This document shows, in pieces, positions 341 through 20,389 of a stretch of DNA of 64,000 bases. The notes under the pieces were generated by a model. The model saw only the letters and a list, made by a program, of their open reading frames with translations. It was not told where the DNA came from and made no database searches. The first letter of the stretch is position 1. Every line of letters starts with the position of its first letter. A program made the position numbers and the translations under genes. Source of the stretch: Oscillospiraceae bacterium (lineage in GTDB: Bacteria; Bacillota; Clostridia; Oscillospirales; Oscillospiraceae); contig CADCHN010000021.1 in NCBI GenBank assembly GCA_902801295.1, positions 13 to 64,012 of the forward strand, given 5' to 3'.

Positions 341-1852
341 TTACAGCTCCAGATCCTCCAGCTCGGCGATGATCTCCTTCTGCCGCTCGTAGAAGAGCAG
401 CTCCTTGTTGTGGGCGAAGTACTCCTTGCAGCCGTAGCGGGAGATGAAGCGGGCACCGTAGTAGCTGAAGGTCAGCTCCGTGACCAGGATGACCATCTCC
501 TGCCCCTCTTCAAAGACGTCCTCACAGAATTTGAACATGTTGGAGAGCTTCTTGCCCGCTTCCTCGGCGTGCTTTTTCAGCGCCTTGGTGCGCTTGTCGA
601 AATCGGCTTTCAGCAGGGCAAAGGCGGCGCTGCCGTTCTCCGGTGGCTCGCGGGTCAGAAGCGCCCGCTCGGCCTCCAGCGCGGCGATCACGCTCTGCTG
701 GGCAAACTGATCGTCGGCCGACAGAGAGCCGGATTTCCGCCCGCTCTCCAGGGTCTTCTGCCGCTGGGCGATCTGTTTATTCAGCGCCGCGTCCGGGTCA
801 GCTCCGGGGCGGGCCAGCTCCAGACGCACGGACTTGAGCGCCGCGAGCAGCTCGGTCTGGGCCTTCTCCTCGTTGCAGACCTCCCGCAGCTCGCCTGTCA
901 CCGCGTCCAGCAGCAGGCCCAGCAGGCTCAACCGCTCGTCAAAGCGGGCGGCGCGGGCGCGGCCCTTGATGACCTCCACCGGCTCCCCGGCGAGGATCCT
1001 GTCGATCTGGTAATCCGAGCGGTATTTGTTGAAGAGGTCGTAGTACACGGCGAAGTCCTTGGCGATCCTGCGGTTCTGCAGGTACTGCCCAACCAGGCTC
1101 TCGTCCACCTGGATGCTGTTCTGCTCGAATAGGCGGATCATATCGCTCAAATCCGACCAGCCGCGGGCAGTGACGAAGCTCTTGCCGTCCACCGTGGTCT
1201 CAATCTTATAGAAGTCCGCCTTCTTGATGTCCAGGTAAGTCATGATGGCCGGGTGCACGCCGGAGCGATAGGCATACTCCTTCCACACGTCGAAGTCCGG
1301 CTCCACGTCGATGCGCTTGAGGCGGTCCCAGGTGACGATGTCGAAGTCGCGCACGGAGTTGTTGTACTCGGGCGGGTTGCCTGCCGTGACCACGATCCAG
1401 CCCTCCGGCACCCGGTGGCGGCCGAAGATCTTATACTGCAGGAACTGCAGCATGGAGGGGGCCAGGGTCTCGGAGACGCAGTTGATCTCGTCCAGGAAGA
1501 GGATGCCCTCTTTGAGCCCAGTGGCCTCGGTCATGTCGTAGCAGGCGGCGATGATCTCCGACATGGTGTATTCCGAGACGCTGTATTCCTGCCCGCCGTA
1601 GATTTTGGTCTCGATGAAGGGCAGGCCCAGCGCCGACTGGCGGGTGTGGTGGGTCATGGAATAGCTCACCAGCGCCACGCCCAGCTCCTGGGCGATCTGC
1701 TCCATGATGGCGGTCTTGCCGATGCCCGGAGGTCCCATGAGAAAGATCGGCCGCTGCTTTTCAATGGGGATCACGTAGTTCCCGAACTTGTCCTTGGTGA
1801 AATACGCCGTCATGGCGTGCTTGATCTGTTCCTTGGCTTGTTTGATGTTCAT
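341..1852 (-). CDS. MoxR-like AAA+ ATPase (AAA_5 type) with long C-terminal coiled-coil extension
   Basis: 503-aa ORF. Walker A FLMGPPGIGKT, Walker B ILFLDEINC, sensor-like VVTAGNPPEYN. Last gene of a tight 4-gene minus-strand operon, with a 5-nt gap to the upstream gene. Confidence 0.8.
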   Translation of the reverse strand: MNIKQAKEQIKHAMTAYFTKDKFGNYVIPIEKQRPIFLMGPPGIGKTAIMEQIAQELGVALVSYSMTHHTRQSALGLPFIETKIYGGQEYSVSEYTMSEIIAACYDMTEATGLKEGILFLDEINCVSETLAPSMLQFLQYKIFGRHRVPEGWIVVTAGNPPEYNNSVRDFDIVTWDRLKRIDVEPDFDVWKEYAYRSGVHPAIMTYLDIKKADFYKIETTVDGKSFVTARGWSDLSDMIRLFEQNSIQVDESLVGQYLQNRRIAKDFAVYYDLFNKYRSDYQIDRILAGEPVEVIKGRARAARFDERLSLLGLLLDAVTGELREVCNEEKAQTELLAALKSVRLELARPGADPDAALNKQIAQRQKTLESGRKSGSLSADDQFAQQSVIAALEAERALLTREPPENGSAAFALLKADFDKRTKALKKHAEEAGKKLSNMFKFCEDVFEEGQEMVILVTELTFSYYGARFISRYGCKEYFAHNKELLFYERQKEIIAELEDLEL

Positions 1853-1857
1853 GGCTC

Positions 1858-2763
1858 TTACCCCATCCGCTTTCTGATCTCATCCAAGGCGATCCGATAA
1901 AAATCCGGATAGTTTTCCACCTCGCATGGAATGATTTCGATCCCATAGGCACGCATAAGCAGCGCCTGCTCGGGAGCCACGCCGCGGGTATAGAAGAAGG
2001 TCTTGCTGTCCGGAAAGTTCCGCTGCTTGCAGCAGGCGAGCCACCAAAGCTCAAACTCCGCCGGATCCATCCCAAATCCGAGGATATGGACGTCCCCCAT
2101 CAGGAAGTAGTCGACCCAGCTTCTCGGCAGATAAGCTTTCCCCTGGGATTCGGCTGCTTTGTATCTGGCCATCATGCCGCCCACATAGCGCTGGATCTGT
2201 GCGAGGAGCTTGCCGTAATAGTAATGGCCGATCACGATAGAGCTGGGCTTATAGGCCAGTCCATGAATATGCCAAATGTACCTTTCGTCATCCCGATGCG
2301 GCAGCTTCGTAAAGCGGTGGAGCATCATGTCGTTGCTTCGGTCGAGCTTGTCCACAGTGTAGTATGTACTTCTGCCCGCGCGACCCCGGGAATAACTGGA
2401 CTCCAGCGTCTGCTCCAGCTCATAGGTGTAATTGGTCGTGAGGATCTGCGTTGCGGGAAGGTCAAGGATCTCCTGCAAAAACGCTTTTTTATCCTCCGTC
2501 AGTTTCGCCTGCAGCAGCTTTTCCGATAGGCGTGGCATTTGGCTGTCGATATGGTTGCCTGACACCGCCACGATCTGCATCGTGGCCGGAAGCCTCTCAA
2601 GCTCCGACTGTTCGCAGGTGATCCCGCTCTCCCGGGAGAAATCCGCAATGATCGTCTTCCAGGGCGTTCCCTCGAACAGTTGATTGACGCCGTTGCCCAG
2701 CAACAGAACGGGCGGACGACTGCCCGGGACAAGGGAGGGCAACTCCGAATTCATGTTTTGCAT
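1858..2763 (-). CDS. SIR2-like (SIR2_2 / defence-type sirtuin fold) domain protein
   Basis: 301 aa. N-terminal VLLLGNGVN (Rossmann glycine loop), ILTTNYTYELE (TTNYD-like motif), IWHIHG (catalytic His context), VHILGFGMDPAEFELWWL (GxSxxD-like strand). AGGAG RBS upstream of the ATG at 2763. Confidence 0.6.
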   Translation of the reverse strand: MQNMNSELPSLVPGSRPPVLLLGNGVNQLFEGTPWKTIIADFSRESGITCEQSELERLPATMQIVAVSGNHIDSQMPRLSEKLLQAKLTEDKKAFLQEILDLPATQILTTNYTYELEQTLESSYSRGRAGRSTYYTVDKLDRSNDMMLHRFTKLPHRDDERYIWHIHGLAYKPSSIVIGHYYYGKLLAQIQRYVGGMMARYKAAESQGKAYLPRSWVDYFLMGDVHILGFGMDPAEFELWWLACCKQRNFPDSKTFFYTRGVAPEQALLMRAYGIEIIPCEVENYPDFYRIALDEIRKRMG

Positions 2764-2778
2764 CTCTGTTTCTCCTGT

Positions 2779-4959
2779 TTACTCCGCCACGAAGGGAATG
2801 TTATTCTCTTTGGCGTACTGCTCGGCATAAGAACCCGCCGGAGCGTGGATGGTGAGCTTGGGGCAGTGCGAAAACGCCTCGCTGCCGATACTCGTCACAC
2901 TCGCCGGAATCGTCATCCTCGTAAGGCCGCTGCAGCCGCAGAACGCCTCACCGCCGATAGTCGCCAAACTCACCGGAAGCGTTATACTCGTCAGGCTGCT
3001 GCACCAGGAAAATGCCTTGTATTCGATCCGTGACACGCGTTCAGGGATCGTCACATCTGTCAATTTGAAGCATTCATAGAACGCCCATCCACCAATTTCT
3101 GTTAAGGTCTGAGGCAGCGACGCGCTTGTGAGGCTTCCGCAGTGGGAGAACGCCATGTCCCCGATCATGATCACGCCCTCGGGGATTATCACCCTTGTGA
3201 GGCCGCTGTATTTGTAAAACGCCTTTTCGCCGATCTCTGTTATCGCATCGGGGATGATGACCTCTGTCGCTGTCCCGCAATATTTCTGAAGCTTCGACCC
3301 ATGTATGTCAAATACCCTTCCGGCCAGTTCGTTGAAGCGGCGCTCTTCGATGATCTCGATGCCGAGCTCCTGTGCTTTGCTGGCCTTGGCCGTGTCGGAT
3401 TTCCGGTCGTTCATAATCAGATAATCCACTTTGGACGTAAGAGAAGATGTGAGCTTAGCGCCTTTTTCCAAAAGGAAGGCTTTTAGCGCATCTCTGTTAT
3501 CAAACGTCTCGAGTCTGCTGGTTACGGCGATGTTGAGCCCTTCGATCCCCTCTTGATCCTGGCGGGCAATAGTACGGTCAATGATCGTATCCTGTTCCTT
3601 CTCTTTTCGTTTCTCCAAGTTCTCTTTTTGTTTTGTGCTGATCTTGTTGGCTTGATAGTCCAACATCATGGCAATCAACTCCGCGTTTCCGGTTTTCTGC
3701 GAAGCATTTACATAGAGCTCCATGTTTTTCGGCGTTATCAGCTTTTCCCTGCACATCAGCGACAGCAACGCGGGGTGCTCCATCGCGAGGCTCACAAGTT
3801 TTGCGGCGTTGGTTTTGATGTATTTGGCGTGAACCTCATATTCTGGCGTCTCCCTTGTTCCTCCGTTTTCCGCAAAACCGACAACGGCGTTGGGACGCAG
3901 AGGGGCTGGAAGCCTGGAAATATCCCGGATCAAAAGCGCTGTCTCCCGGTCAAACGCATCCATCCCGATCGTCGACACACTGTCCGGGATTCTCACCTTC
4001 GTTAGACCGCCGCACATGGAGAAAGCACATTGGCCGATCTCCGTCACGTTCTCCGGGATCGTCACGCTCGCGAGGCTCTTGCAGCCGTAGAACGCCGAGC
4101 CGCCGATGCTCGTCACACTGTCCGGGATCGTCACGCTCGTCAGCCCGCTGCAGCCGTAGAACGCCTCGTCGCCGATGCTCGTCACGCTGTCCGGGATCGT
4201 CACGCTTATCAGATTGCTGCACCAACTAAATGCTCTGTTCCCGATTCTTGTCACCCCTTCGGGAATGACAACGTCTCCGCCGGGGCCGTCATATTGAAGC
4301 CCACCGTTCTCGATCGCGAAAAAGCTCCGGTTCAGCAGCGCCAGGGCTTTTTCAGACCCCTTGAACTGAACAGGACCGCAGTTCCAAAAAGCCCGACTGC
4401 CAATGAGCTCCACGCTCTCCGGGAGCACTACACTTTTAAGGCTCTTGCAGTTGCTGAGCGCGTGGCTGCCGATTATCTTTACACTGGCCGGGATCGTCAC
4501 ACTCGTAAGGCTCTCGCAGTTGCTGAACGTACGGCTTCCGATTTCCGTTACGCTCTCGGGGATAACCAGATTTGTAATCAGCCCATTATCTATATAGAGG
4601 TTTCTGGCGCGGGAAAGGGGGTTGCTGTTTTCATCTGCATATTTGATCTGACACCAGGCAGCCAGATCCTGGATGGTCACCGCTGTCAGACTGCTGCATC
4701 CATAAAATGCCATCGTGCCGATGCTGGTCACGCTATCAGGAATGGTCACGCTCGTGAGATACATGCACTTGTAAAACGCATACTCGCCGATACTCGTCAC
4801 GCCCGTCAAGATCGTTACGCTTTTCAGCCCTATGCTGCTTCTGTAGAAAGCCTTGTCGCCAATGCTCGTCACGCCCTCCGGGATGATCACATCCCCGCCG
4901 GGACCGGTATATTTCTTCAAAACACCATTCTCAATAATGAAATCGCTCGCGCTGCTCAT
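2779..4959 (-). CDS. Cytoplasmic BspA-type leucine-rich-repeat (LRR_5) protein with a central BRCT domain
   Basis: Start taken at MSSASDFIIENG (ATG 4959, AGGAGG RBS). The longer track ORF to 5166 overlaps the upstream gene. Many repeats of the form xVTIPxSVTSIGxxAFxxCxSL on both sides of a BRCT-like segment (about nt 3320-3540: NIAVTSRLETF..KVDYLIMNDRKSDTAKASKAQELGIEIIEERRFNEL). No signal peptide. Confidence 0.75.
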   Translation of the reverse strand: MSSASDFIIENGVLKKYTGPGGDVIIPEGVTSIGDKAFYRSSIGLKSVTILTGVTSIGEYAFYKCMYLTSVTIPDSVTSIGTMAFYGCSSLTAVTIQDLAAWCQIKYADENSNPLSRARNLYIDNGLITNLVIPESVTEIGSRTFSNCESLTSVTIPASVKIIGSHALSNCKSLKSVVLPESVELIGSRAFWNCGPVQFKGSEKALALLNRSFFAIENGGLQYDGPGGDVVIPEGVTRIGNRAFSWCSNLISVTIPDSVTSIGDEAFYGCSGLTSVTIPDSVTSIGGSAFYGCKSLASVTIPENVTEIGQCAFSMCGGLTKVRIPDSVSTIGMDAFDRETALLIRDISRLPAPLRPNAVVGFAENGGTRETPEYEVHAKYIKTNAAKLVSLAMEHPALLSLMCREKLITPKNMELYVNASQKTGNAELIAMMLDYQANKISTKQKENLEKRKEKEQDTIIDRTIARQDQEGIEGLNIAVTSRLETFDNRDALKAFLLEKGAKLTSSLTSKVDYLIMNDRKSDTAKASKAQELGIEIIEERRFNELAGRVFDIHGSKLQKYCGTATEVIIPDAITEIGEKAFYKYSGLTRVIIPEGVIMIGDMAFSHCGSLTSASLPQTLTEIGGWAFYECFKLTDVTIPERVSRIEYKAFSWCSSLTSITLPVSLATIGGEAFCGCSGLTRMTIPASVTSIGSEAFSHCPKLTIHAPAGSYAEQYAKENNIPFVAE

Positions 4960-4972
4960 GTGTTTTTCCTCC

Positions 4973-6355
4973 TTATATTTCTTCCTTCTGCAATACCAGT
5001 TTGATCGCCCAGGGCGGCACGTCGTAGTTGTTCTGCCCGTCGTCCACGAAGACGAAGGCGGTCTCATAGTCCGGCTTTTTCGCCGGGAAAGTGCCGAAGC
5101 CGTCGGTGAAGTAGATGAGGCCTTTGAGATTTTGAAACTCCTTTTTCTCCCGCAGCCAGTCCACATAGGAGAACACCGGGCGGAAGTCTGTGCCGCCGAG
5201 ACCGTGGATCGTCATGTTCTTGAGGTAGGCGTCAAATTCCTCTTGCGAGGTGATCTTCGCGTCCTCCTGGATGGTTGCATCGCACTGAATGATGTGTACG
5301 TTGATCTTTGAGAAAAAGCTCTCGGTGCTTTTGAGGATGTTGTAAGTCTTTTGCAGGAAGGTCTGCACCTGCTCGCCCGCCACGGAGCCGGAGGTGTCGA
5401 TGGCGATCACGAACTCCCGGATACGCTTGACCTCCTTGTATTCCAGCGGCTCAATGAGCGGCATTTTTCTGTAGAGCTTCAGTCCGTAGGTGTAGTAGAC
5501 GTAGTCGAATTCCTCGTCGTTGATCTTCATGGCCTCGCCGCGAACGGCGAACTTTTTGAGGAAGGCCGTGTAGTCGTACTTCTCCCGGTTGACCTCCCGC
5601 AGGTTCTGCATCAGATTCCCGGCCCGGTCGCCCTGTTGCTTGGAAAAGGTCTCCATGTCCATCTGCATCTGGCGGGAGATCTCCGACCAGCGCGCCTCGG
5701 CAGCCGAGACGCCGAAGGGCAGAGAAGTGCCTTCCCCCTCTCCGTCGCCATCGCCCTCGCCGGGCTCCACCGAAACACTGACGGAAACCGGTCTGCCCAG
5801 TGCCAGCGCCCGCTCCGCCTCGCTCATGTACCAGAGACGGTGATCGTCGTTGTAAAACGCGCCGCGCAGCTCCGCGATTTTCTCCGGCGGCAGCTGCTTG
5901 TCCAGATAATAGCGGTAAATCTTCTCGGCGGTGAGCTGCTTGATCTCCTTCTGGAGCTCGGAATACACGCTCTTTTGCAGCAGCTCGCGCCGGGTGGTGG
6001 CCGCCTTGAGGCCGAGCCCCGCGATCACGTACTCCGCCGCGATGTCGCAGGCCAAATCCCAGACGTGGTGATCCACCAGCGTGTGCACAAACATGTGCCG
6101 GAACACGCCGTGCAGCACCATGTGGAGATAGGCGCGCGTGACCGCCTCCCGCTCGTCCCTGTACAGGCGCAGGACGTGGGCGGGATCGTAGGCCAGCGCC
6201 TCGCCGTCCGTGGCGAGGGTCAGGCCCTCCACAGCCAGCGGCTCGAGCTGATTGAGCGCCGCGTCCAGAAAGCGCAGATTCACCAGCAGCGTGTTGCGGC
6301 TCAGCCGCAGCACGTCGAGCGCCAGTTTATTTCGTTTTGAAACTTGTTCGTCCAT
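4973..6355 (-). CDS. vWA-like domain protein with N-terminal putative metallopeptidase domain (DUF2201 family)
   Basis: Start at MDEQVSKRN (ATG 6355). N-terminal YLHMVLHGVFRHMF region typical of DUF2201_N. C-terminal vWA/MIDAS-like FVIAIDTSGSV. First gene of the operon that ends with the MoxR ATPase. Confidence 0.75.
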   Translation of the reverse strand: MDEQVSKRNKLALDVLRLSRNTLLVNLRFLDAALNQLEPLAVEGLTLATDGEALAYDPAHVLRLYRDEREAVTRAYLHMVLHGVFRHMFVHTLVDHHVWDLACDIAAEYVIAGLGLKAATTRRELLQKSVYSELQKEIKQLTAEKIYRYYLDKQLPPEKIAELRGAFYNDDHRLWYMSEAERALALGRPVSVSVSVEPGEGDGDGEGEGTSLPFGVSAAEARWSEISRQMQMDMETFSKQQGDRAGNLMQNLREVNREKYDYTAFLKKFAVRGEAMKINDEEFDYVYYTYGLKLYRKMPLIEPLEYKEVKRIREFVIAIDTSGSVAGEQVQTFLQKTYNILKSTESFFSKINVHIIQCDATIQEDAKITSQEEFDAYLKNMTIHGLGGTDFRPVFSYVDWLREKKEFQNLKGLIYFTDGFGTFPAKKPDYETAFVFVDDGQNNYDVPPWAIKLVLQKEEI

Positions 6356-6489
6356 GTCGTTTTTCTGTGTAGGGGCTGCCGCCCTCGGCAGCCCGCATGA
6401 TCCCTTATGTGCGCACCGCGGAGGCACGAGGGCATGCCGCCCTTGTATAATGCAGTGAGGCCGAAGAAGAGGTATACTAGAGTACACGC

Positions 6490-7860
6490 TGTGGATTGGT
6501 TTCCTCCCTTCCGGTTCCGTCAGGAAACTGGTACCCGTAGGCTACAACCACAGTCTTGAATCTGAGAGTTGATGGGTTGGATAACACACGATGTTTCATT
6601 TCAGGCAAGGATACTTCTTTCAAGACCTGTGGCTGACGCAGCGTAATCTGTACAAGGAGTGAATTCCATGTTCTTCGTAGGCATTGACGTCTCTTCCGTG
6701 AAGCATGACTGTTGCATTCTGGATGGCAGTCGAAAAATGATTCGCTCGTTCATGATCCTGAACAGTCGGGAAGGCTTCTCCGCTTTGTCTGCCACGCTCA
6801 TCGAGCTTGCCGCCCCGGAGGATATTAAAATCGGGCTGGAAGCTACCGGCATCTATGGCGACAATCTCGCGCGCTTTCTGAGGCGTAAGGGATTTAATGT
6901 GTGCACCATTAATCCACTGTTATGCAAAAAGCATCAAAGTGCTACCACTCTCAGAAAAACCAAAAACGATCGTTCGGACGCGAAAAACATTGCGCTCATT
7001 GTTGCATCGGAGGACCTTCAGCCCGACCAACCATTATCTTACCATATTGTCGAGCTAAAGTCACTATCCCGCGCAAGATTTCTTACCGTAAAGGACCGTT
7101 CTTCCCTGAAAAACAAGGTTAAACGGCTTGTAACCGTTCTCTTTCCGGAACTGCTTGACGCGTTCACCGACCTGTTTGGCGCCTCGGGCATGGCACTGAT
7201 GACGCGTTATCCTTCGGCTAAGACTCTCGCTGCCTGCAATCTTGACACGCTTACCGAGCTTCTCAGAACCGCCTCCCGCGGTCGCTTCGGCCGGGAGAAA
7301 GCTGAAGCGCTCCGTAAGCTTGCCAAGGAGTCCATCGGCACCTTTTCTGATAGCGCTGTCTTTCAGCTGCGGCTGCTCCTTAAGCGTATTGAGCTTCTTA
7401 ACACTCAGATCGAAATGTATGACGATGAGATCCGTCGCTTGATGGATCAGCTCGACTCTCCGATTCTTTCTCTCCCTGGTATTGGCTATACTCTCGGCGC
7501 TATGATCCTTTCCGAGATCGGCGACATTAAGCGCTTTTCTTCTCCGGCTAAGCTCCTCGCTTTTGCCGGCCTTGAGCCCAGCGTATACCAGTCTGGCAAG
7601 TTCAACCCAGCCTCTGGAAAAATGGTCAAGCGTGGCTCACCTTTCCTTCGCTGGGCCCTTCTACAGGCTGCTACTTACGCCCCTGCTTTCTCCATTACCT
7701 TCGCTGCCTACTACGATAAAAAACGCTTAGAAGGGAAATCTCCCTCTGTTGCTCACTCTCATGTTGCAAAAAAACTCGTTCGTGTTATCTTCGCTCTTCT
7801 CTCCAAAAATGCCTCTTTTATTGACTCTTTTGCTGCTTGACTTTTCATAGTTGGTCTACG
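6490..7860 (+). mobile_element. IS110-family insertion sequence (boundaries approximate)
   Basis: Single DEDD transposase gene preceded by about 170 nt of structured non-coding DNA. No terminal inverted repeats seen, as expected for IS110. Lies between two unrelated minus-strand loci. Confidence 0.6.
6668..7840 (+). CDS. IS110-family transposase (DEDD_Tnp_IS110 + Transposase_20)
   Basis: MFFVGIDVSSVKHDCCILD N-terminus. C-terminal LSLPGIGYTLGAMILSEIGDIKRFSSPAKLLAFAGLEPSVYQSGK..KRGSPFLRWALLQAA. AGGAG RBS 8 nt before the ATG at 6668; the track ORF starts at a GTG at 6659. Confidence 0.9.
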   Translation: MFFVGIDVSSVKHDCCILDGSRKMIRSFMILNSREGFSALSATLIELAAPEDIKIGLEATGIYGDNLARFLRRKGFNVCTINPLLCKKHQSATTLRKTKNDRSDAKNIALIVASEDLQPDQPLSYHIVELKSLSRARFLTVKDRSSLKNKVKRLVTVLFPELLDAFTDLFGASGMALMTRYPSAKTLAACNLDTLTELLRTASRGRFGREKAEALRKLAKESIGTFSDSAVFQLRLLLKRIELLNTQIEMYDDEIRRLMDQLDSPILSLPGIGYTLGAMILSEIGDIKRFSSPAKLLAFAGLEPSVYQSGKFNPASGKMVKRGSPFLRWALLQAATYAPAFSITFAAYYDKKRLEGKSPSVAHSHVAKKLVRVIFALLSKNASFIDSFAA

Positions 7861-7968: not shown

Positions 7969-8940
7969 CTATTCCATCGCTTTCTTGACCAGTTCCGCAT
8001 AGGCATCTTTGACGCTTGGGGGGCCGAGGATCTTGATCTTTCCGCCGAACTCGAAGACCCAGGCGAAGAAGGTGGGGCTGACGGAGACCTCGGCGGTGAA
8101 GCTGAAGTGCTCCTCGTCGGCCTTCCTGACCTTGACCTTCTCGCCGAAGTGGTCCAGCACCGTATTCATCATAGTGTTCTCGCACAGCAGCTCCACCTGG
8201 GCGTGCTCGCTGTCGAAGAGCTGGAAAGCCTTTTCCGCGAAGTCCCCGATGCTGTACTGCTTCGGCTTCGGCACGGCCTTGTCCGGCAGGATCGTCGGCA
8301 CCTCGAAGATCCGGTCCACCCGGAAGGTGGCGATCTTCCCGTGCTTGTCCGACCAGCCCACCACGTAGTAAAAATCGCCGTTCCAGGTCAGCGTGTAGGG
8401 GCTGAGGGTGTAGGGCTCTCCGCCGTTTTTGAGCTGGCGGTGCTTCCTGCCGTCGTACTCGAAGTACAAAAAGCGCACCTTGCGCTTTAAATTGATGGCG
8501 TCGTTGAGCGCGTCCATGATGTAATAGATCTGTTCGTTGCCCGCCTTGACCCGGTCGGCAATGCTGATGTTGCGCCGCAGCTGCCCGGCCTCGTTGATAC
8601 TGGCCAGGGTCGTGAGCTTTTCGGTCAGCACGCGGCTCTTTTTCTGGGTAATGAACTTCGAGGACTCCACCGCGTCGATCAGAAGCTTCAGCTCCGGCAG
8701 CTCGAAGAGGCGGCCGGAGAGATAGTACTTGTTCTGGGTGGAGCGGATGGTCTCGATCTCATAGCCCGCCGCGCAGAGCGCGGCGATATCCTTCTGGATC
8801 GTGATGCGGTAGGCCTCCAGCCCCCAGCGCTCCCGCAGGGTGCGCTCGATCTCCACTGTGGAGATGGGGTGGCGCTCGTCGGTCTCGTTTCGCAGTAACT
8901 CCAGGATCCGGAGCATTCTCATCTTGCCGTCGCTTTCCAT
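7969..8940 (-). CDS. WYL-domain transcriptional regulator (HTH-WYL-WCX architecture, BrxR/CapW-like)
   Basis: Start at MESDGKMRMLRILELL (ATG 8940). N-terminal wHTH (RMLRILELLRNETDERHPISTVEI), central WYL-like core (PYTLTWNGDFYYVVGWSDKHGKIATFRVDRI), C-terminal extension. Confidence 0.85.
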   Translation of the reverse strand: MESDGKMRMLRILELLRNETDERHPISTVEIERTLRERWGLEAYRITIQKDIAALCAAGYEIETIRSTQNKYYLSGRLFELPELKLLIDAVESSKFITQKKSRVLTEKLTTLASINEAGQLRRNISIADRVKAGNEQIYYIMDALNDAINLKRKVRFLYFEYDGRKHRQLKNGGEPYTLSPYTLTWNGDFYYVVGWSDKHGKIATFRVDRIFEVPTILPDKAVPKPKQYSIGDFAEKAFQLFDSEHAQVELLCENTMMNTVLDHFGEKVKVRKADEEHFSFTAEVSVSPTFFAWVFEFGGKIKILGPPSVKDAYAELVKKAME

Positions 8941-8968
8941 GGGTGTTCCTCCTTTGTTGTAATGTCCG

Positions 8969-9031
8969 CCGTAGGGGCGCTTCACGAAGCGCCCGTTTTC
9001 TCTCGCGGGCCATTCGTGAATGGCCCCTACG
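8969..9031. repeat. Twin-hairpin palindrome in the WYL gene leader
   Basis: gggcgcttc-ac-gaagcgccc and gggccattc-gt-gaatggccc are each perfect 9-bp hairpins. They are bracketed by cgta...tacg, which makes a larger imperfect dyad. Confidence 0.6.
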
Positions 9032-9044
9032 AATGCCGGGGAAC

Positions 9045-9110
9045 GCAAAAAGGGACGCTCGAATCTGCCTATGCAATTCAAGCATCCCTTCTGTCAAATT
9101 ATTCTATTGT
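9045..9110 (-). promoter_or_regulatory. Conserved promoter/operator-like element, copy A (upstream of the WYL regulator)
   Basis: Shares a 24/24-nt identical block tcccttctgtcaaattattctatt (9085-9108) with 14366-14389 and about 70% identity over about 68 nt. Minus-strand TTGACA at 9092-9097. Imperfect GAAGGGA..TCCCTTC dyad. Confidence 0.55.
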
Positions 9111-9179: not shown

Positions 9180-9602
9180 TTATTCGTCGTCTTCGTCATT
9201 CCACCCAAGGTCTTCAAAACTTACTTGTTTTTCTTCTTTCTTTGCTTCGACACTAAAACTAACCCAATCGTCATCTGAAAGTCCAATTGCAAAAGATCCA
9301 TGAAGTTCAACAGAGGGAAACTCTTTTTTCAGCGATGCATAGTATTTTATTATCTCTTCATCTAAAAAATGACCTCGAGAGTATACAATATACCCGTGGC
9401 AATCTGATTCAATCTTATCGTCTTTGACGGTTAAATCAAAGATTCCAGCATGTCCATCTGCTGCTTGAAAAACTCCTGCCGGATTGAGCCCAGTGCCCGA
9501 ATAATCTTCCCGCTGTACATCGCCAAACATCTCCGCGTCTTTCGCACGCATCCAAGCAATGATTTCTTGCGTTTGCTCTTTTGCACAGATAATATCTACC
9601 AT
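9180..9602 (-). CDS. Hypothetical acidic protein (140 aa)
   Basis: ORF with a GGAGG RBS, preceded by a consensus-like promoter. AT-richer than its surroundings. Acidic C-terminus (EDLGWNDEDDE). No motif recognised. Confidence 0.5.
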   Translation of the reverse strand: MVDIICAKEQTQEIIAWMRAKDAEMFGDVQREDYSGTGLNPAGVFQAADGHAGIFDLTVKDDKIESDCHGYIVYSRGHFLDEEIIKYYASLKKEFPSVELHGSFAIGLSDDDWVSFSVEAKKEEKQVSFEDLGWNDEDDE

Positions 9603-9738: not shown

Positions 9739-10965
9739 TTATACCAGCGAATCGTCCAGCAGGAAGTCCAGAATGCCGATGTTCAGCACGCCGTTGTCGT
9801 CGTACCAGCGCTTGCGGATGTCGTGGCGTACGATGATCTTCGGGAAAGAGTCGCCGGTCAGGGACAGGGGCTTAACTTCCGCCGCCGCTTTTTCGTCAGT
9901 ATCCAGCGCATAGGCGGACTGGATATAGGTTTTCTTGCCGCCCCGCGAGGCAACGAAGTCGATTTCCCGGGCCACCTGGGCGCTCTGGCCTTTCCTGTTC
10001 TTCTCCGCACCGTAGACGATGCCGATATCCACCTCGCAGCCGCGCACGCGCAGCTCGTTATACAGGATGTTCTCCATGATGTGGGTCATTTCCTGCTGCC
10101 GGAAGCCGGTGCGGGCGCGGCACTCCTCGAACAGATAAGCGTCCGACAGGTGGCCGATATAGGCCGTGACCGTGTTTGCGGCGACGGTGTTTTCCCCCGC
10201 GCGCTTCTGCCGGGAATTCAGGGCGTTGGCGATGTTGTTCGGGTTGGTCAGTGAGCCGACTGAGGAGCAGAGCAGATCCAGCGTTGCACCCAGCACGTCC
10301 TCGCGCCGGATCTTTTTGCGCTCCACGATGTCCTTCAGATAGACCTCGGAAAAAAGCGATTTTAGATAATTCATCTTCGCCGTGTCGTCCGGGCGGGAGA
10401 GGATCAGCGGCATACCGCCGAAAAAGGCATAGTCCTCGAAAGCCTCCGCCTTGTCTCCGCCCACCGCCGCGTAATACTCCGCAAAGCGCAGCGGGTGGAC
10501 ACGGATCTCATCGCTGCGGCCGCGAAACTCGGTGAGGATATCGCTGGAGAGCATGCGGGAATTGCTGCCGGTCACATAGATATCCAGATTGTCCAGCGAT
10601 TTCAGATCGTTGAGCGCGTCGTAAAAGGTGATCTTCTTCCCGTCCGGATTGTAGGGGTTCGGCACCTCGTCGGACATCTGGATCTCATCCACGAAGAGAT
10701 ACCAGCGATCCGGCTGCCCCTCGACCCGCTCCCGCACGGCCTTCGCCAGCTCCAGCGGGTTGCGGTAACGGATATCTTTCGCCAGATCCAGCTCATAGCT
10801 GAGGATGTGATCCTCGGCCACGCCTTGCTCCAGCAGCCAGCGCTTGAAGATCGTGCGCAGCAGATAGCTCTTGCCGCAGCGGCGGATGCCGGTGATGACC
10901 TTGACCTGCCCGTTCCACATATAGGAAATGATCCGATTCAGATAGATGTCGCGTTTGATATCCAT
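9739..10965 (-). CDS. AAA+ ATPase with C-terminal DUF4143 (AAA_14/DUF4143 family)
   Basis: Start at MDIKRDIYLNR (ATG 10965, AGGAGG RBS). Walker A ITGIRRCGKSYLL, Walker B LFVDEIQ. C-terminal part matches the restriction-endonuclease-like DUF4143 arrangement (EIDFV). Confidence 0.8.
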   Translation of the reverse strand: MDIKRDIYLNRIISYMWNGQVKVITGIRRCGKSYLLRTIFKRWLLEQGVAEDHILSYELDLAKDIRYRNPLELAKAVRERVEGQPDRWYLFVDEIQMSDEVPNPYNPDGKKITFYDALNDLKSLDNLDIYVTGSNSRMLSSDILTEFRGRSDEIRVHPLRFAEYYAAVGGDKAEAFEDYAFFGGMPLILSRPDDTAKMNYLKSLFSEVYLKDIVERKKIRREDVLGATLDLLCSSVGSLTNPNNIANALNSRQKRAGENTVAANTVTAYIGHLSDAYLFEECRARTGFRQQEMTHIMENILYNELRVRGCEVDIGIVYGAEKNRKGQSAQVAREIDFVASRGGKKTYIQSAYALDTDEKAAAEVKPLSLTGDSFPKIIVRHDIRKRWYDDNGVLNIGILDFLLDDSLV

Positions 10966-11177
10966 AGAAACCTCCTGTTGAGAACTTGTTAAGTCTATTA
11001 TACAACTTCTCAACAAGAATAATACACTTTACCAATGCTCTTGTCAATGCCGCTGTTGAGAAGTTACGAAAAATATTAGCCAACTTCTCAATAATGTTCC
11101 AGACGAACACGCCGGATTTTCCCGACAGTCGAGAAAATCCGGCGTGTTGTGATCTATCGAACTGTATTAGCCGGGGT

Positions 11178-12143
11178 TTACTGCTCTTCCAAAGCTTTTT
11201 TGTAATCCAGCAGTTCGGCGGTCAACTCAGCGTCATTATATGCTGATCCAAGATCGAAGAAGACGGAATAGGATTCTGCGCTGATACACTTATTAGTCAG
11301 CAGTTCACGAAGCTCCATTCTGTTTTCCGCGGAGAAGATCTCTGTGACGAATTCAATGGCCGCTTGATCCCCTGCGGCCGCTGCTTTCAAATAGCAATCC
11401 CAGGCTTTGTTCAGATCCTTCTCGACGCCTGCAAGTCCTGTCTCGTAAAGCATACCAAGATCCAAAAGTCGGGCCGAATCGTCCGTCCCTGTTATGGTCA
11501 GGGCAAGGAGCTCTGCCAAGGATTCTTTTTCAGATTCGATGCACTCCTGCAGGTATTCCTCATCCCCGACAATGTTTCCCTCATTATCTATTTGCATGGA
11601 TTCATAATCATGATCCTCATCTGAGAAATCATCCTCTTCCGGAATTATGTCTTCTTCCTCCGGGATTACATCGCTAAGATCAATCGTTTCTCCACATTCG
11701 GAGCAATCATAGGTTTCCCCAAATGCTTCCTCTTCGCCCACCAAAAGGCGGCAACCGCAATGAGGGCACTCAAAGGAATACATGATCTCATCCGCATAAA
11801 CCAATTCAGAACGGAAGCGCAAAGAACCGTTTTCAAACTCTATGTCATTGATCGACTCGTCCCCACCGCCGACCTCTTCCTTCATAAAGGTATAATATCT
11901 GAAATTCGCTTGGGGCAAAGCTCGGGCGAGTGAAATAAAGACCCCTTCGTCCACATCGTCCCATCCGTTTACATCCGTCAGCCAGCTAAAAACCAGAGCA
12001 TCCTCCGTATTTTCCTCAACGAAACCATTTCTATGCCTGAAATGGCCGTCATATCCGGTCAGCAAACTAAACAATCTATAGTGGATCTTTCCTTGCCTGC
12101 GTGTTCCGCTAAAGCCGCCTTCAAATCGGGAATCTACACTCAT
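11178..12143 (-). CDS. Hypothetical protein with an internal zinc ribbon, a very acidic linker and a C-terminal Sel1-like repeat
   Basis: 321 aa. CPHCGC..17..CSECG. DLSDVIPEEEDIIPEEDDFSDEDHDYE. LGMLYETGLAGVEKDLNKAWDCYLKAAAAGD. Confidence 0.55.
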   Translation of the reverse strand: MSVDSRFEGGFSGTRRQGKIHYRLFSLLTGYDGHFRHRNGFVEENTEDALVFSWLTDVNGWDDVDEGVFISLARALPQANFRYYTFMKEEVGGGDESINDIEFENGSLRFRSELVYADEIMYSFECPHCGCRLLVGEEEAFGETYDCSECGETIDLSDVIPEEEDIIPEEDDFSDEDHDYESMQIDNEGNIVGDEEYLQECIESEKESLAELLALTITGTDDSARLLDLGMLYETGLAGVEKDLNKAWDCYLKAAAAGDQAAIEFVTEIFSAENRMELRELLTNKCISAESYSVFFDLGSAYNDAELTAELLDYKKALEEQ

Positions 12144-12504: not shown

Positions 12505-14298
12505 TCAAAACAGTTTCCCGCTGCCGTAGATCTCACTCGGGATGTAATCCCAGCCAAGGCGTTTCTTCATCTCGGGCTTGGTGGCGTCGATGTGAATGCG
12601 CACCTCGATCACGGGATTCATGCGCTTGCTCTCCAGCCTAGAATAGGGAACGGAAGTGATGACCTCCGCCGCATAGGGGATGCCCTCGGCCAGCAGATCC
12701 TTCAGCCAACTGTCTGAAGAAACGTCACCCACGTCGCCGGCTGCCGTCACGAAGTCGATGCGGCTGCCGTCATCGCTCATCCGGAGCGTCACCTGATCGC
12801 CCACGTTCACGCGCTCGCTGCGCTCCTTGCGGTCGCCCTTTTTGGTGTTGGTGAGCTTGCATTCATAGTCCGGCATCGGGCCCATCTCGGCGCGCAGCTG
12901 CTCCAGCATCTCAACGAACTGGGGGTCTCCGCTCTCCGCCGCCTTGCTGAGCCACTTTTCGGCCTGCACCTCGTCCTTTTCCACACCGCTTCCCTGCATA
13001 TAGAGAAGCCCGATGATGCCCGCCGCCTCGGAGTCGGTTTCACTCAGTTCCTCCAGCAGGGACATGGCGCGCTCCCTGTCTACACCGTGATCATAAACCT
13101 TTTCGCCCTCAAAATAGCAGGCGAAAGCGTAGGCCTTGATGGCGCCCGGGTCTCCGTCCTCGATGCCCTCCAGCAGCTCGTCCATGTCGTAGTCCGGCTC
13201 TTTTACGGCAGGCTCCTGGCCAAAGGCCACGTTCACCAGATCGTTGGCCTGCAGATAGCTGAAGAAGCTCATGAGCTCAATATCCGGGGGCAGGGTGCCC
13301 TCGTCGATCAGCTGCTGCCGGTAGCGGTAGAAGTGGGCCATGCTGGACGCCCGCTCGTCGCCAAGCTCGGCCGCCCGGTCGTACCAGAAGATGGACTTCT
13401 CATAGTCAGAGGGGTCGAGGTTAATGTACTGCACCGCGAGCTGGGCAGCCACACGCACGTCGCCCGGCTCCTTTTCCTCCGCCTTGAGCAGATAGCCGAT
13501 GATCCGCTCAACCGGCATGATGGGCCGCGGCTGGTTCCCGCTCTCCAGCGAAATGCTGGCCGCGGCAGCGCAATGGCCCTGCTCGGCTGCCTTGATGGCC
13601 CATTCCAGGGCAGCGTCGTCATCCTGCGGCACGCCGGAGCCGTTCTTGAAGCAGACCGCATAGCAGTACTGGCACTCGGGGCTTCCGAGCTCTGCACCGG
13701 CCTTGTACAGCTCCGCCGCCTTGACGGGATCCTTTTCCACGCCCACGCCGTAATCGTAGCGGGTTCCAAGGCAGTGATAGCCCCGGGGGCAGCCCTGCTC
13801 CACTGAGCGCTGCGCCATCTCAAAGGACTCTTTCTTGTTTTCCTCGCTGGGGTAATTGGCCAGCAGCGTGGAGAATCGGGCCTGGGCCTCCGCGTCCCCC
13901 GCATAGGCTTTCTTTTCAATCTCCGGCGCATCCTTCAGAATCTTGAGCTGGCCGGGGGCGTCCGCGTCGCCGTTTTCAGATGCAAGCTCCATCCAGCGAA
14001 TGGCCTCGGTAAAGTCGCGCTTGATGCCCTCGCCGCGGGCGCACTGGATGCCCATATTGTACTGAGCCACCGGCTCGTCCAGATCGGCTGCCATGCAATA
14101 ATACTCCACGGCCTTCACCGGGTCGCGCTCCACACCGTCCCCGGTCAGGTAGGCAAAGCCCATCTGGAGCATGGCCTCCGGGTCGCCGCTCTCAGCGCCC
14201 ATGTGTTCCCAGAACAGGTCGCGCTTGAATTCGCCGGTCACAGGATCCTTGTAGCCTGCTTTGAAGCTGATGATTCCTCCGTTGTCATTGTTCGGCAT
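12505..14298 (-). CDS. Sel1-like repeat (SLR/TPR-family) protein with a distinct C-terminal about 120-aa domain (weakly HIRAN-like)
   Basis: 597 aa. Many units of the type GDPEAMLQMGFAYLTGDGVERDPVKAVEYY. The C-terminal NVGDQVTLRMSDDGSRIDFVTAAGDVGDVSSDSWLKDLLAEGIPYAAEV fits a HIRAN-type pattern only loosely. Confidence 0.75.
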   Translation of the reverse strand: MPNNDNGGIISFKAGYKDPVTGEFKRDLFWEHMGAESGDPEAMLQMGFAYLTGDGVERDPVKAVEYYCMAADLDEPVAQYNMGIQCARGEGIKRDFTEAIRWMELASENGDADAPGQLKILKDAPEIEKKAYAGDAEAQARFSTLLANYPSEENKKESFEMAQRSVEQGCPRGYHCLGTRYDYGVGVEKDPVKAAELYKAGAELGSPECQYCYAVCFKNGSGVPQDDDAALEWAIKAAEQGHCAAAASISLESGNQPRPIMPVERIIGYLLKAEEKEPGDVRVAAQLAVQYINLDPSDYEKSIFWYDRAAELGDERASSMAHFYRYRQQLIDEGTLPPDIELMSFFSYLQANDLVNVAFGQEPAVKEPDYDMDELLEGIEDGDPGAIKAYAFACYFEGEKVYDHGVDRERAMSLLEELSETDSEAAGIIGLLYMQGSGVEKDEVQAEKWLSKAAESGDPQFVEMLEQLRAEMGPMPDYECKLTNTKKGDRKERSERVNVGDQVTLRMSDDGSRIDFVTAAGDVGDVSSDSWLKDLLAEGIPYAAEVITSVPYSRLESKRMNPVIEVRIHIDATKPEMKKRLGWDYIPSEIYGSGKLF

Positions 14299-14472: not shown

Positions 14473-16335
14473 TTATAGCTTCGCAAAGATGATCTCCAGA
14501 TCCTCCTCGCTGGTGGGCATGGTTTCGAGGATGTGGTTGTCGATGGCGTCCAGCATGATCTGCTCTTTTTCCTTCAGCCGGTCATAGATAGCCTGATCCA
14601 TGGACCAGGGGCCGTCGTTGGTCTGATAGCCGGTCTCCAGGTAGTAATACTGGGTGTACTGCCCCTCCGGCAGACCCAGGCGATGGATGCGGTCCTTGGA
14701 CTGGAGCAGATGCACCAGGTTGTAGCTGTACTCAAAATACACCGCGTCGTGGCAGACGCTGTGCAGGGACACCGACTCCGCCAGCGTGTGGGGATTCGTC
14801 AGAAGGACCTGGATCTCGCCGCTGCGAAAATCGGACAAAATCTGCTGGCGTTCCTCCAGCGGCACCTCGCCGTAGACGCAGCGGCAGCGGACGCCGCGCT
14901 TTTCCAGCTCTGCGGAAAGGCGGTGAATGGAGTCGATGAAGATGCACCAAAGGATAACTGGCTTGCCCTCCTGCGTCAGCTTCTCCGTCAGCTCCACGCA
15001 TTTGCGGAATTTGGACGGCACACCGCAGCCCTCGATCAGAGCGCGGACCTCGCCGCTGTAGTCGGCATAGTCGATCTCGTCAGCGTCCACGCTGTCGTCC
15101 AGCAAATATTCAAAGTTCTTGAGGCTCAAGTTCTCCAACAGGGCGCGGGGATTGGATTCCAGCTGCAGGATGCGGATCAGCAGCGCCAGCTTGTTCTTCT
15201 TATACTTCATGGACAGGATCTTCAAGATCCGGTTCTCGTCCGGCGTGGCCTCCGTCGGCACCATGGTGTCGGGATTGGCACGGGGGACGCCCAGCTGATC
15301 CTTGGTGGTGCGGCAGAAGAAGGGCTGCAGCTTGTCGTTGACCGCCTGCACGTCCTGGACCGCGGGCTTGCGGAGCTGAGCGGGCGTGAAGCCGAAGAAT
15401 TCCTCATACTCGTAGGGGAAGAGAATGTGCAGCAGGTTATACACGTCCGTATAGGCATTGGGCAGCGGCGTTCCGGTGAGGGCGATCACATAGGCCGCGT
15501 CCCTGGCCACGTTCAGGGCATGGGAGGCATACTCGCCGCCGATGCGCTTGACCTTGTGCACCTCGTCGAAGACCAGAAGCGTCCGATCCTCGGCCAGCGT
15601 CTTGAGAATGTCGTCCAGCTGCCCGACGGACTCATAATTGACCAGGATCAGGTTGCATCCGCCTGACTCGTATTCCAGCGCAGTGCGGCGATCCTTGGTA
15701 CCCTTGTAGGCCGGGTTGTGGATGTTCAGGACCCGCAGCGGCTCCTTCGCACCGAAGCAGGCCGTGAACTCGTCCATCCAGGAGCCGAAGGCGTTTTTCG
15801 GGCAAATGACCAGGATGCGTTTGACCGCGCCTTTGGCGGCAAGATAGGCATAGACGCCCAGCACCGAGGCCGTCTTGCCCGAGCCGGGAACGGAGAAGTT
15901 GGCGGACTTCTGCATGGCGCACATGAAGAAGCTGTCCCACATCTGCCGCTCCCGCAGGGGGCGCACCATTCTGCTGTCCACAACGGCTTTATATTTCTCA
16001 TAGCGCTCGGCCAGCTTGGGATCGTGGGCTTTCAGTTCCGCACCCAGGCGGGAGCGGATCTCGATGTGCATCTCTCTGGCGGCAATATAGTCCCGCAGGG
16101 CGTTGGACACCGTAAAGGCCGTGTCACGCTTTTCGCTTTCCCGGGTCACCAGATCGATGACTTTTTTGTAATCCAGGTAGGTTAGGGCGGGCTTGAAGCG
16201 CAGGAAGCCCGGCAGCGCCTCTTTCACATAGCGCCGCAGGAAGAGCTTATAGAAGCTCCCGGCCAGAAGGGCGTCCGTTTCCTCGGCAGGCAGACGCATC
16301 AGCAGCGCGCCGTCATAGTCCAGCAGCCACATCAC
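14473..16335 (-). CDS. SNF2-family helicase/translocase
   Basis: 620 aa. Walker A VPGSGKTA, DEVH box LLVFDEVHKV, LTGTPLPN, helicase-C motif VI QSKDRIHRLGL. The start overlaps the stop of the upstream gene (ATGA at 16332-16335). Confidence 0.85.
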   Translation of the reverse strand: MMWLLDYDGALLMRLPAEETDALLAGSFYKLFLRRYVKEALPGFLRFKPALTYLDYKKVIDLVTRESEKRDTAFTVSNALRDYIAAREMHIEIRSRLGAELKAHDPKLAERYEKYKAVVDSRMVRPLRERQMWDSFFMCAMQKSANFSVPGSGKTASVLGVYAYLAAKGAVKRILVICPKNAFGSWMDEFTACFGAKEPLRVLNIHNPAYKGTKDRRTALEYESGGCNLILVNYESVGQLDDILKTLAEDRTLLVFDEVHKVKRIGGEYASHALNVARDAAYVIALTGTPLPNAYTDVYNLLHILFPYEYEEFFGFTPAQLRKPAVQDVQAVNDKLQPFFCRTTKDQLGVPRANPDTMVPTEATPDENRILKILSMKYKKNKLALLIRILQLESNPRALLENLSLKNFEYLLDDSVDADEIDYADYSGEVRALIEGCGVPSKFRKCVELTEKLTQEGKPVILWCIFIDSIHRLSAELEKRGVRCRCVYGEVPLEERQQILSDFRSGEIQVLLTNPHTLAESVSLHSVCHDAVYFEYSYNLVHLLQSKDRIHRLGLPEGQYTQYYYLETGYQTNDGPWSMDQAIYDRLKEKEQIMLDAIDNHILETMPTSEEDLEIIFAKL

Positions 16336-20236: not shown

Positions 20237-20269
20237 CGAACCATCCGCCTTCCGTCAGCATTTCAAATG

Positions 20270-20298: not shown

Positions 20299-20362
20299 AA
20301 GATATTTTAGCCTATTTGGCGAGATGCTGAAAAACTTCAACAGCTCAAGCTCAGACTGCAAC

Positions 20363-20383: not shown

Positions 20384-20389
20384 AAAGAA

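Follow-up and report, generated by a model that had tools for sequence, protein, structure and literature searches.

A MoxR-vWA operon with LRR-BRCT and SIR2-like genes is one version of a hypervariable mobile-element island in gut and rumen Clostridia

In the vWA-MoxR ternary conflict systems of Kaur, Burroughs, Iyer and Aravind (2020, PMC7159879; extended in 2021, PMC8195603), the third component is of the VMAP, iSTAND/iSTAND2, TERNS3, beta-propeller or FtsH type. Here we analyse a four-gene operon that encodes a DUF2201-type vWA protein, a leucine-rich repeat (LRR) protein with a central BRCT domain, a 301-residue SIR2-like protein and a MoxR ATPase, and that lies near the start of a 64,000-nucleotide stretch of DNA (called the window) from an Oscillospiraceae bacterium. 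The operon is one version of a very common, hypervariable mobile-element island in gut and rumen Clostridia, and its architecture is best seen as a variant of the ternary conflict systems in which a SIR2-family protein would act as effector. The two papers mention neither BRCT nor Clostridia and tie neither LRRs nor SIR2 proteins to vWA-MoxR systems; their mentions of LRRs are confined to background passages or the reference list, and the one mention of SIR2 concerns another system. Literature searches on DUF2201 with MoxR, MoxR with LRRs, LRR_5 with defence and SIR2 with LRRs likewise turned up no account of the island. A first-pass annotation of the window had noted no earlier description of the architecture, and we too found none of a Clostridial MoxR-vWA-LRR_5 island.

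As in the ternary systems, a MoxR ATPase and a vWA protein bearing a metal-ion-dependent adhesion site (MIDAS) are locked to a repeat-containing, sensor-like third component and to variable effector domains. The window ATPase is a MoxR-clade AAA+ protein with intact Walker A and canonical Walker B motifs, and it matches the Pfam models AAA, AAA_5 and bpMoxR (PF20030), the last just above its cut-off (28.8 bits versus 27). Its vWA partner (DUF2201_N, a zincin-like domain, 8e-9; DUF2201, 4e-14; VWA is matched too) carries a MIDAS in which the Asp, the Thr and both Ser residues are invariant among 60 homologues, with the Gly kept in 57 of them. In contrast to the ternary systems, the island uses BspA-type LRR_5 proteins, in many cases several of them, as third component, and Pfam searches found none of the described third-component types in the window's third-component gene or in 70 partners from related islands. 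Furthermore, the effectors here are separate small genes, and the hosts are unicellular gut Clostridia, not multicellular bacteria, in which the genes are carried on mobile elements.

The open reading frames (ORFs) and junction sequences reveal four tightly spaced minus-strand genes (Table 1) with gaps of 13 nt between the vWA and LRR-BRCT genes (4960-4972), 15 nt between the LRR-BRCT and SIR2-like genes (2764-2778) and 5 nt between the SIR2-like and MoxR genes (1853-1857), exactly as the first-pass annotation had claimed; Pfam profile searches uphold the gene order that it gave. Shine-Dalgarno-like sites (GGAGG and AGGAG) stand ahead of the LRR-BRCT and SIR2-like starts, and the four reading frames are uninterrupted and keep their conserved catalytic motifs. 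The operon is thus real, and recurrence of its order on independent contigs shows that it is no chance juxtaposition.

The 301-residue protein matches Pfam SIR2_2 (PF13289) with an E value of 1.4e-7 (32.1 bits versus a curated cut-off of 24.5) and contains every one of the motifs LLLGNG, TTNY, HIHG and ILGFGMD by which it had been recognized as SIR2-like. In an alignment of 31 family members that are 33-76% identical to it, the GNG motif, N111 of TTNY and H165 and H167 of WHIHG are invariant, and N111-Y112, W164-H165-x-H167-G168 and the HYYYGK motif vary little or not at all. A family profile run against PDB sequences finds KomC and ThsA, with the GxG and TTNY motifs aligned. The AlphaFold model is confident (pLDDT 90.4, pTM 0.90), assigns all 301 residues to the SIR2 fold, with a beta-hairpin inserted between its Asn and His motifs, and has KomC, BcThsA and DSR2 as its best Foldseek matches in the PDB (E 4.5e-8 to 1e-6, template-modelling score 0.55-0.66). 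The model thus bears out the predicted fold, and a SIR2 fold with a catalytic Asn/His signature (H165 or H167) is well supported; the protein is a predicted NADase. At 50% identity the family falls into 1150 clusters if matches with E <= 1e-3 are counted and into 139 if the limit is E <= 1e-30, and 55 member sequences are represented by a cluster 96% identical to the window protein. The family borders on AbiH, since many relatives carry a precomputed AbiH match (PF14253); the window protein scores below threshold on that model (22.2 bits versus a cut-off of 30.9) and matches no PADLOC AbiH model.

The closest structural matches belong to defence systems from which the locus can be told apart. 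KomC is also a small stand-alone SIR2 protein, activated in trans, and KomC, ThsA and DSR2 share the fold and the aligned motifs with the window protein, although sequence identity is 12-16% and the window protein has its beta-hairpin insertion. Unlike Thoeris, the operon has no TIR gene and its SIR2 protein lacks a SLOG or Macro domain, with a PADLOC ThsA match of only 13 bits. DSR1 and DSR2 are single proteins of about 1000 residues, with SIR2 at the N terminus and a large sensor at the C terminus, whereas the window protein has no 700-residue sensor region and aligns with only the SIR2 domain of DSR2. The Kongming components KomA (deaminase) and KomB (HAM1-like) were not found by Pfam in the operon or the roughly 24 kb around it. 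AbiH, a lactococcal single-gene abortive infection protein, is similar in being stand-alone and about 300-350 residues long. In contrast to SIR2-HerA, the SIR2 gene here neighbours LRR-BRCT and MoxR genes, and the sole HerA-like gene is 45 kb away and chromosomal. Membership in Thoeris, DSR, Kongming, SIR2-HerA or AbiH is rejected, as the locus misses a defining feature of each.

The 726-residue LRR-BRCT protein, which begins MSSASDFIIENGVLKKYTGPGG, matches LRR_5 (3e-135) in five stretches on both sides of the BRCT domain, giving the architecture LRR_5, helical linker, BRCT, LRR_5. Its N terminus, read directly, is not hydrophobic, in agreement with the earlier view that it has no signal peptide; the protein is cytoplasmic. 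The BRCT domain is of the type found in LigA, the NAD-dependent DNA ligase, whose C terminus it matches in PHROGs and NCBIfam, and it also matches the C-terminal half of the PADLOC candidate PDC-S48, a DEDDh exonuclease-BRCT protein (9e-11). The DUF1351-RNase_T exonuclease encoded by relatives of the island matches the N-terminal half of the same candidate (1.7e-13). In contrast to PDC-S48, the two halves reside on separate proteins in the islands, and the window has no exonuclease gene. A second LRR_5 protein in the window, with a C-terminal type I dockerin, is a secreted, cellulosome-type paralogue only about 25% identical to the operon's cytoplasmic protein; it suggests a fibre-degrading, Oscillospiraceae/Ruminococcaceae-like host.

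Both partners of the conserved pair have homologous PHROG families (vWA, PHROG 1314, 2e-39; MoxR, PHROG 1297 ATPase, 2e-38). Nevertheless, a phage origin is rejected: in a tblastn search of 50,697 phage records, close matches were confined to short unannotated 'Bacteriophage sp.' faecal contigs, cultured phages among the matches listed reached 26-27% identity, and an IMG/VR scan gave one contig with a match. MoxR relatives form more than 8000 clusters at 90% identity, with the top 120 matches at least 76% identical, and a 97%-identical cluster stands for 115 sequences. In the zincin-like domain of the vWA protein, both His residues of the HxxxH motif are invariant among the 60 homologues, and position 79 is M, I, V or S in 54 of the 60, with Glu not among the tallied residues. 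This domain is probably non-catalytic, with a metal-binding or structural role, because the catalytic Glu is lost.

The best-sampled relatives reveal the full layout of the island. A WYL-WCX regulator is followed by the genes p72 and p199, sometimes an LRR_5 gene, and the vWA gene; then come one to five LRR_5 genes, one small variable gene, MoxR, one or more further LRR_5 genes, a DUF1351-RNase_T (DEDDh) exonuclease gene and TnpV. The constants are the WYL regulator, the DUF2201 vWA protein and a highly conserved MoxR, and the variables are one to several cytoplasmic LRR_5 proteins and the small gene beside MoxR, to which it is translationally coupled. Protein identities to the window range over 62-97% for MoxR, 54-92% for vWA, 32-76% for SIR2 and 31-51% for LRR proteins. 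A housekeeping role for the LRR protein is ruled out: it is the least conserved component and differs wholly between islands with flanks about 90% identical. The closest relative, locus L097 (L numbers denote loci of relatives), has a MoxR 97% and a vWA protein 92% identical to those of the window, and its DNA is 88-90% identical across the WYL, vWA and MoxR genes. Between vWA and MoxR, the window holds 3.1 kb (LRR-BRCT-LRR and SIR2) and L097 holds 1.7 kb, with a single 520-residue LRR-BRCT protein and no SIR2; the two cassettes are unrelated save for LRR repeats. Unrelated cassettes between conserved flanks constitute a signature of cassette exchange.

The position directly upstream of MoxR is variable. 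In 98 loci it is taken by vWA (about 28), LRR_5 (about 20), an unnamed 157-residue protein called p157 (about 13), a 309-residue protein (11), DUF4760 (about 9) or SIR2 (8). The p157, DUF4760 and SIR2 genes mostly overlap the MoxR start by 4 nt (ATGA), as SIR2 does in L030 and L089-L092. This pattern suggests, from gene arrangement, that the slot may host alternative output modules, of which the SIR2 gene is a rare, optional occupant that shares the slot with DUF4760 and p157. The p157 protein, which also occurs fused to LRR_5, has no match in Pfam, NCBIfam or PADLOC, and its conserved RNRLIH motif (Rx4H, HEPN-like) by itself gives a hint of a HEPN RNase. In a sub-clade whose MoxR is about 70% identical (L128-L146), the order is vWA, a gene for a protein of about 309 residues, MoxR, and the locus holds no LRR_5 gene; this protein has no Pfam or PADLOC match and may be a different third component.

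Domains fused to the LRR partners add to this variety. Among 70 island LRR partners, Pfam finds BRCT in 11, DUF4132 in 11, DUF6273 in two, ankyrin repeats in two and TIR_2 in one. A TIR-LRR_5 fusion is present in sister island L081. A free TIR protein accompanies a TIR-LRR_5 protein in the island of an 88%-identical MoxR. In E. coli, DUF4132 proteins (YehI/MolR) presumably also have a MoxR-like ATPase (YehL) and a vWA protein (YehP) as neighbours, an arrangement that, if true, would tie the islands to a wider MoxR-vWA-DUF4132 theme.

Recurrence was assessed in two samples, with neighbours counted over all ORFs labelled with phmmer: 80 species-representative genomes that encode a SIR2 relative, and 80 metagenome loci whose MoxR is 63-97% identical to that of the window, a range set by the exact peptide patterns with which these loci were drawn. 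The window's own order, with one or two LRR-BRCT-LRR genes between vWA and SIR2 and more LRR-BRCT genes after MoxR, is found in L089-L092, whose SIR2 proteins are 70-76% identical to that of the window. The short contigs L093 and L100 hold LRR-BRCT, SIR2 and MoxR. In L093 the MoxR gene is called as only 105 residues, through truncation or an assembly error, beside intact LRR-BRCT and SIR2 genes, the latter 75% identical to that of the window. Thus, the four-gene order is not unique to the window.

In the SIR2-sampled genomes, MoxR and/or vWA genes accompany SIR2 in 7 of 80 loci, all seven with LRR_5 genes. Other arrangements are vWA-LRR-SIR2-MoxR-LRR (L030), vWA-LRR-p157-MoxR-SIR2-Sel1 (L024), LRR-vWA-MoxR-SIR2-Sel1 (L004), SIR2-LRR-vWA-MoxR (L027) and, in a distant lineage with a SIR2 only 32% identical to that of the window, vWA-SIR2-LRR/BRCT-MoxR (L080). 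An LRR_5 gene directly adjoins SIR2 in 20 of the 80 genomes, often with an overlap of 1-20 nt, and zinc-ribbon-TIR_2 proteins of about 800 residues adjoin it in 11 of 80, usually as arrays; the genomes in which SIR2 lies inside such arrays number 11-13 (L012, L013, L022, L026, L029, L035, L039, L061, L067, L073 and L078). About nine of these arrays also hold a zinc-ribbon SPFH (Band_7_1) protein and a small membrane protein; the combination of SIR2 with TIR recalls Thoeris, but without a SLOG domain. In 43 of the 80 genomes, MoxR, vWA, LRR and TIR are all absent from the fetched locus, many of these contigs being short; if the count is restricted to loci flanked by 5 kb or more on each side, it is 17 of 35. 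The SIR2 gene can therefore work, or at least persist, without the pair. A stand-alone homologue, 54% identical, is the neighbour of SbcCD, and its island also contains Cas9, a reverse transcriptase of the AbiA type and a Dcm/Vsr pair; other homologues adjoin comEA-like genes. A neighbour-joining tree of SIR2 proteins, built without bootstrap support, places MoxR-linked members at six or more positions, interleaved with LRR-linked, TIR-linked and unlinked ones.

The MoxR-sampled loci give the complementary picture. An upstream vWA gene is identifiable in 55 of the 80 and is contiguous with MoxR in 24 and split from it in 31, by one to four LRR_5 genes (20 loci) or by the gene for the roughly 309-residue protein (11 loci). 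LRR_5 genes occur in 56 of the 80 loci and SIR2 in one. The first-pass annotation had assumed that the pair is normally adjacent and that SIR2 and LRR-BRCT genes had been inserted into it. The assumption of adjacency does not hold in this clade: a bracket of vWA and MoxR around other genes is the usual layout and not a special insertion, because 31 of 55 pairs are split. The four components do recur together, and the regular partner of the pair is LRR_5, not SIR2.

These observations are consistent with the island being a conflict system, directed against phages or plasmids, with a SIR2-like NAD+-consuming effector in the allele of the window. Of the readings weighed here it is the best supported, with about an even chance of being right. 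Under this model, which follows the logic that Kaur et al. put forward for the ternary systems, the LRR(-BRCT) protein would be a diversifying sensor that binds an invader-derived ligand, the vWA protein would be an adaptor that tethers the LRR protein through its MIDAS, and MoxR would be an ATP-driven switch or resetter that remodels or releases the complex. Cleavage of NAD+ by the SIR2-like protein would be the output, arresting the infected cell. Each of these biochemical steps, as well as the trigger, the direction of regulation and control of SIR2 by the other three proteins, is something we infer. The setting fits a defence or conflict role in that it comprises a mobile element, a WYL regulator, the candidate PDC-S01 and hypervariable cassettes, and a role of the SIR2-type gene in immunity is plausible. 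The TIR-LRR_5 fusion of L081 would add another NAD-related effector, and the homologue in the island with Cas9 has a similar setting. The first-pass proposal of an NTP-gated, NAD-depleting abortive-infection module is thus supported in part, by the domains, the SIR2 fold, the recurrence and the defence-like setting. Its notion of a special insertion does not hold, the regular partner is LRR_5, and NTP-gated NAD depletion is a prediction. A logic of LRR ligand sensor, NTPase and NAD-consuming effector like that of eukaryotic nucleotide-binding LRR receptors is conceivable, given the TIR-LRR_5 fusions of sister islands. Unlike in those receptors, the NTPase here is a separate MoxR AAA+ protein, not a STAND NTPase, and the repeats are BspA-type LRR_5, such that the likeness is an analogy that implies no homology.

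Several points weigh against a conflict system with a SIR2 effector. For immune genes, MoxR and vWA show unusually high conservation, which would likewise be expected of a chaperone whose client has no part in immunity. The vWA protein differs from that of the ternary systems in being of the DUF2201 type, with its zincin-like domain at the N terminus, and in ending with the vWA domain, with no C-terminal effector or effector-associated domain (EAD) adaptor; no EAD or Death-like domain was found in it or in the third component, within Pfam sensitivity. PADLOC-DB 2.0 returns no system-level match, with weak matches to IetA, LmuA and ThsA besides PDC-S48 on the BRCT domain. SIR2 is seldom present in the islands, and about half of its homologues have no MoxR, vWA, LRR or TIR neighbour, so that it does not need functional coupling. 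In the window itself, the SIR2-MoxR junction is a gap and not an overlap, and this copy may be misregulated or silent because an IS110 element separates the operon from the WYL gene and promoter.

The rarity of SIR2 and its frequent isolation lead to the main alternative, which we consider unlikely but worth weighing, in which the SIR2-like gene is an autonomous single-gene abortive-infection module of the AbiH/KomC type, lodged in the variable slot and not regulated by MoxR, vWA or LRR proteins. The best 150 family representatives are indeed all stand-alone proteins of about 300 residues, many members carry AbiH matches, and the homologues beside SbcCD or comEA-like genes, like the loci with none of the usual neighbours, and the single SIR2 in the MoxR sample, agree with autonomy. 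Yet a protein made up entirely of the SIR2 fold leaves no obvious sensor within its 300 residues. The 4-nt overlaps with the MoxR start, the adjacency to LRR_5 genes and TIR arrays (often with overlaps of 1-20 nt) and the several separate places in the tree at which the link to MoxR islands arose also argue against autonomy.

Still less probable, in our estimate, is a non-immune function in which the MoxR-vWA chaperone matures or assembles LRR_5 proteins for the mobile element or the cell, for example in establishment after transfer, counter-defence or competition between elements, with SIR2 acting on them as a deacylase or ADP-ribosyltransferase. The known MoxR-vWA pairs RavA-ViaA, CbbQO and NorQD are maturation chaperones. 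Conservation of MoxR and vWA across families, travel of the island on mobilizable elements with TnpV, integrases and relaxases, and the absence of any PADLOC system match accord with this idea, whereas cassette turnover, fused or neighbouring TIR, DEDDh-exonuclease and SIR2 genes and a WYL regulator are all typical of defence loci, and the SIR2 model is closest to defence NADases and not to protein deacetylases. Compatible with any of these readings, and the one to which we give least credence, is that the window copy is a decaying or silenced allele in which IS110 removed small genes and uncoupled the operon from its WYL gene and promoter. The breaks in homology with L097 at 6357 and 7953, the missing p72 and p199, the lack of a consensus promoter between 6356 and 6658 and the 105-residue MoxR of L093 point that way. 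However, the four frames are intact with conserved catalytic motifs, close relatives of SIR2 and MoxR are numerous (the clusters of 55 and 115 sequences above), and the ends of insertion sequences often provide outward promoters.

The conflict-system reading can also be widened. Tentatively, and with somewhat less confidence than in a conflict role for the island, we propose that a conserved MoxR-vWA machine services exchanged cytoplasmic LRR_5 receptors, some carrying BRCT, DUF4132 or TIR domains, together with slot effectors (SIR2, DUF4760 or p157), as a mobile 'split receptor' immunity of gut and rumen Clostridia. This would be an LRR-based repertoire distinct from STAND/Avs proteins and from the actinobacterial and cyanobacterial ternary systems, with the window as its NAD-depleting allele. 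The island family as a whole is more interesting than this four-gene allele: the architecture is abundant and apparently undescribed, and its SIR2 link is facultative. If immune, it would rank, given the number of MoxR clusters, with the commonest defence architectures that await characterisation in the Firmicutes of the human and ruminant gut. The cytoplasmic BspA-type LRR proteins, which are very numerous in Clostridia, would then also gain a function, and the assembly of LRR sensor, ATPase switch and NADase from separate genes around a MoxR-vWA chaperone would be a new design principle. The variable slot gives a direct handle on effector swapping. If not immune, the island would still define a client class of the large, unstudied MoxR-vWA family.

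Table 1 Features of the window and of related loci (positions are those of the window unless a locus is named)
Feature	Position	Strand	Remarks
Promoter downstream of MoxR	127-155	minus	sigma-70-like, TTGAAA-17-TATAAT; strong, near consensus (11/12 matches); faces window start
MoxR gene	341-1852	minus	503 aa; ORF list and junction sequences
Walker A, G40-T47	1712-1735	minus	GPPGIGKT; MoxR gene
Walker B, D121-E122		minus	MoxR gene
SIR2-like gene	1858-2763	minus	301 aa; ORF list and junction sequences
H165/H167	2263-2271	minus	WHIHG; SIR2-like gene
N111	2431-2433	minus	TTNY; SIR2-like gene
G23-N24-G25	2689-2697	minus	GNG; SIR2-like gene
LRR-BRCT gene	2779-4959	minus	726 aa, counted from the ATG behind the GGAGG site
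BRCT domain	3343-3540	minus	about aa 474-539; Pfam 3e-8
vWA gene	4973-6355	minus	460 aa; ORF list and junction sequences
MIDAS, D320-T-S-G-S324	5384-5398	minus	vWA gene
HxxxH, H78 and H82	6110-6124	minus	vWA gene; without catalytic Glu
IS110-family segment	6358-7952	plus	
IS110 transposase	6659-7840	plus	Pfam DEDD_Tnp_IS110 and Transposase_20
WYL-WCX regulator	7969-9081	minus	Pfam WYL and WCX; PADLOC WYL models 1.8e-27
Promoter-like site ahead of WYL	9130-9101	minus	
140-aa ORF	9180-9602		no known family
AAA_14/DUF4143 ATPase	9739-11016	minus	PDC-S01, PADLOC single-gene defence candidate, 1.4e-87
Sel1-repeat protein	11178-12143	minus	
Sel1-repeat protein	12508-14298	minus	larger of the two
Element backbone	14473-26203		SNF2 helicase, 404-aa protein, 897-aa protein, S24 LexA-like repressor, relaxase, large serine recombinase
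Large serine recombinase	24560-26203		
Open on both strands	38199-45359		2386 aa plus, 2379 aa minus
HerA-like gene	48213-49940		
Dockerin-bearing LRR_5 protein	55212-58220	minus	1002 aa
p157 gene	L084:9531-10004		
p157 gene	L024:5455-5940		
LRR_5-p157 fusion	L087:5193-7388		
LRR_5-DUF4132 fusion	L089:12660-17534		
Gene for ~309-aa protein	L129:9034-9963		
Short MoxR call	L093:4367-4684		

The genes around the operon place it on a mobile element. Pfam confirms the IS110 transposase noted earlier just upstream of the operon (Table 1). Homology with L097 ends at 6357 and resumes at 7953, and between these points lies the 1.6-kb IS110 segment, where L097 instead has about 0.9 kb (L097:5972-6883) that holds p72 and p199, both absent from the window. 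The operon is thus cut off from its usual upstream region, with the IS110 segment between it and the WYL regulator, and a promoter scan found no consensus promoter at 6356-6658. The true start of the WYL gene is likely near 8943, and in L084-L088, L097 and L102 the island also opens with this gene. Two genes upstream of it, beyond a short ORF, lies the PDC-S01-type ATPase. Of the two Sel1-repeat proteins that come next, the larger belongs to a family whose members directly follow the SIR2-like gene in L004 and L024; the Sel1-repeat protein found after that gene in L019 is unrelated. These neighbours hint that the SIR2 gene or the island has another companion that recurs.

The element backbone includes an 897-residue protein with two RNA polymerase alpha-CTD domains and a sigma-70 region 4, and from about 26.3 kb it gives way to chromosomal genes, namely ypeB and the genes for two tRNA synthetases, one of the class I Glu/Gln type (likely gltX) and one of the Trp/Tyr type. 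It follows that an integrative mobilizable element carries the operon as cargo, a location that also accounts for the similarity of MoxR across Oscillospiraceae, Lachnospiraceae and other families. At the other end, the window begins 340 nt beyond the MoxR stop, and that stretch is non-coding. It holds an outward-facing promoter, after which AGGAGG and, near position 80 on the minus strand, a TTG start read out of the window, and its positions 83-340 align with the L097 stretch after MoxR, ahead of that locus's three large LRR_5 genes. The promoter probably drives the next gene of the island, and the island probably continues past the window start, as both the promoter and the alignment indicate.

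Elsewhere in the window, a 7.1-kb region is open on both strands and free of large tandem repeats. Only its minus-strand product has Pfam matches (CHB_HEX_C, DUF5689 and Flg_new), so the region probably encodes a giant minus-strand surface protein, with the plus-strand ORF being spurious.

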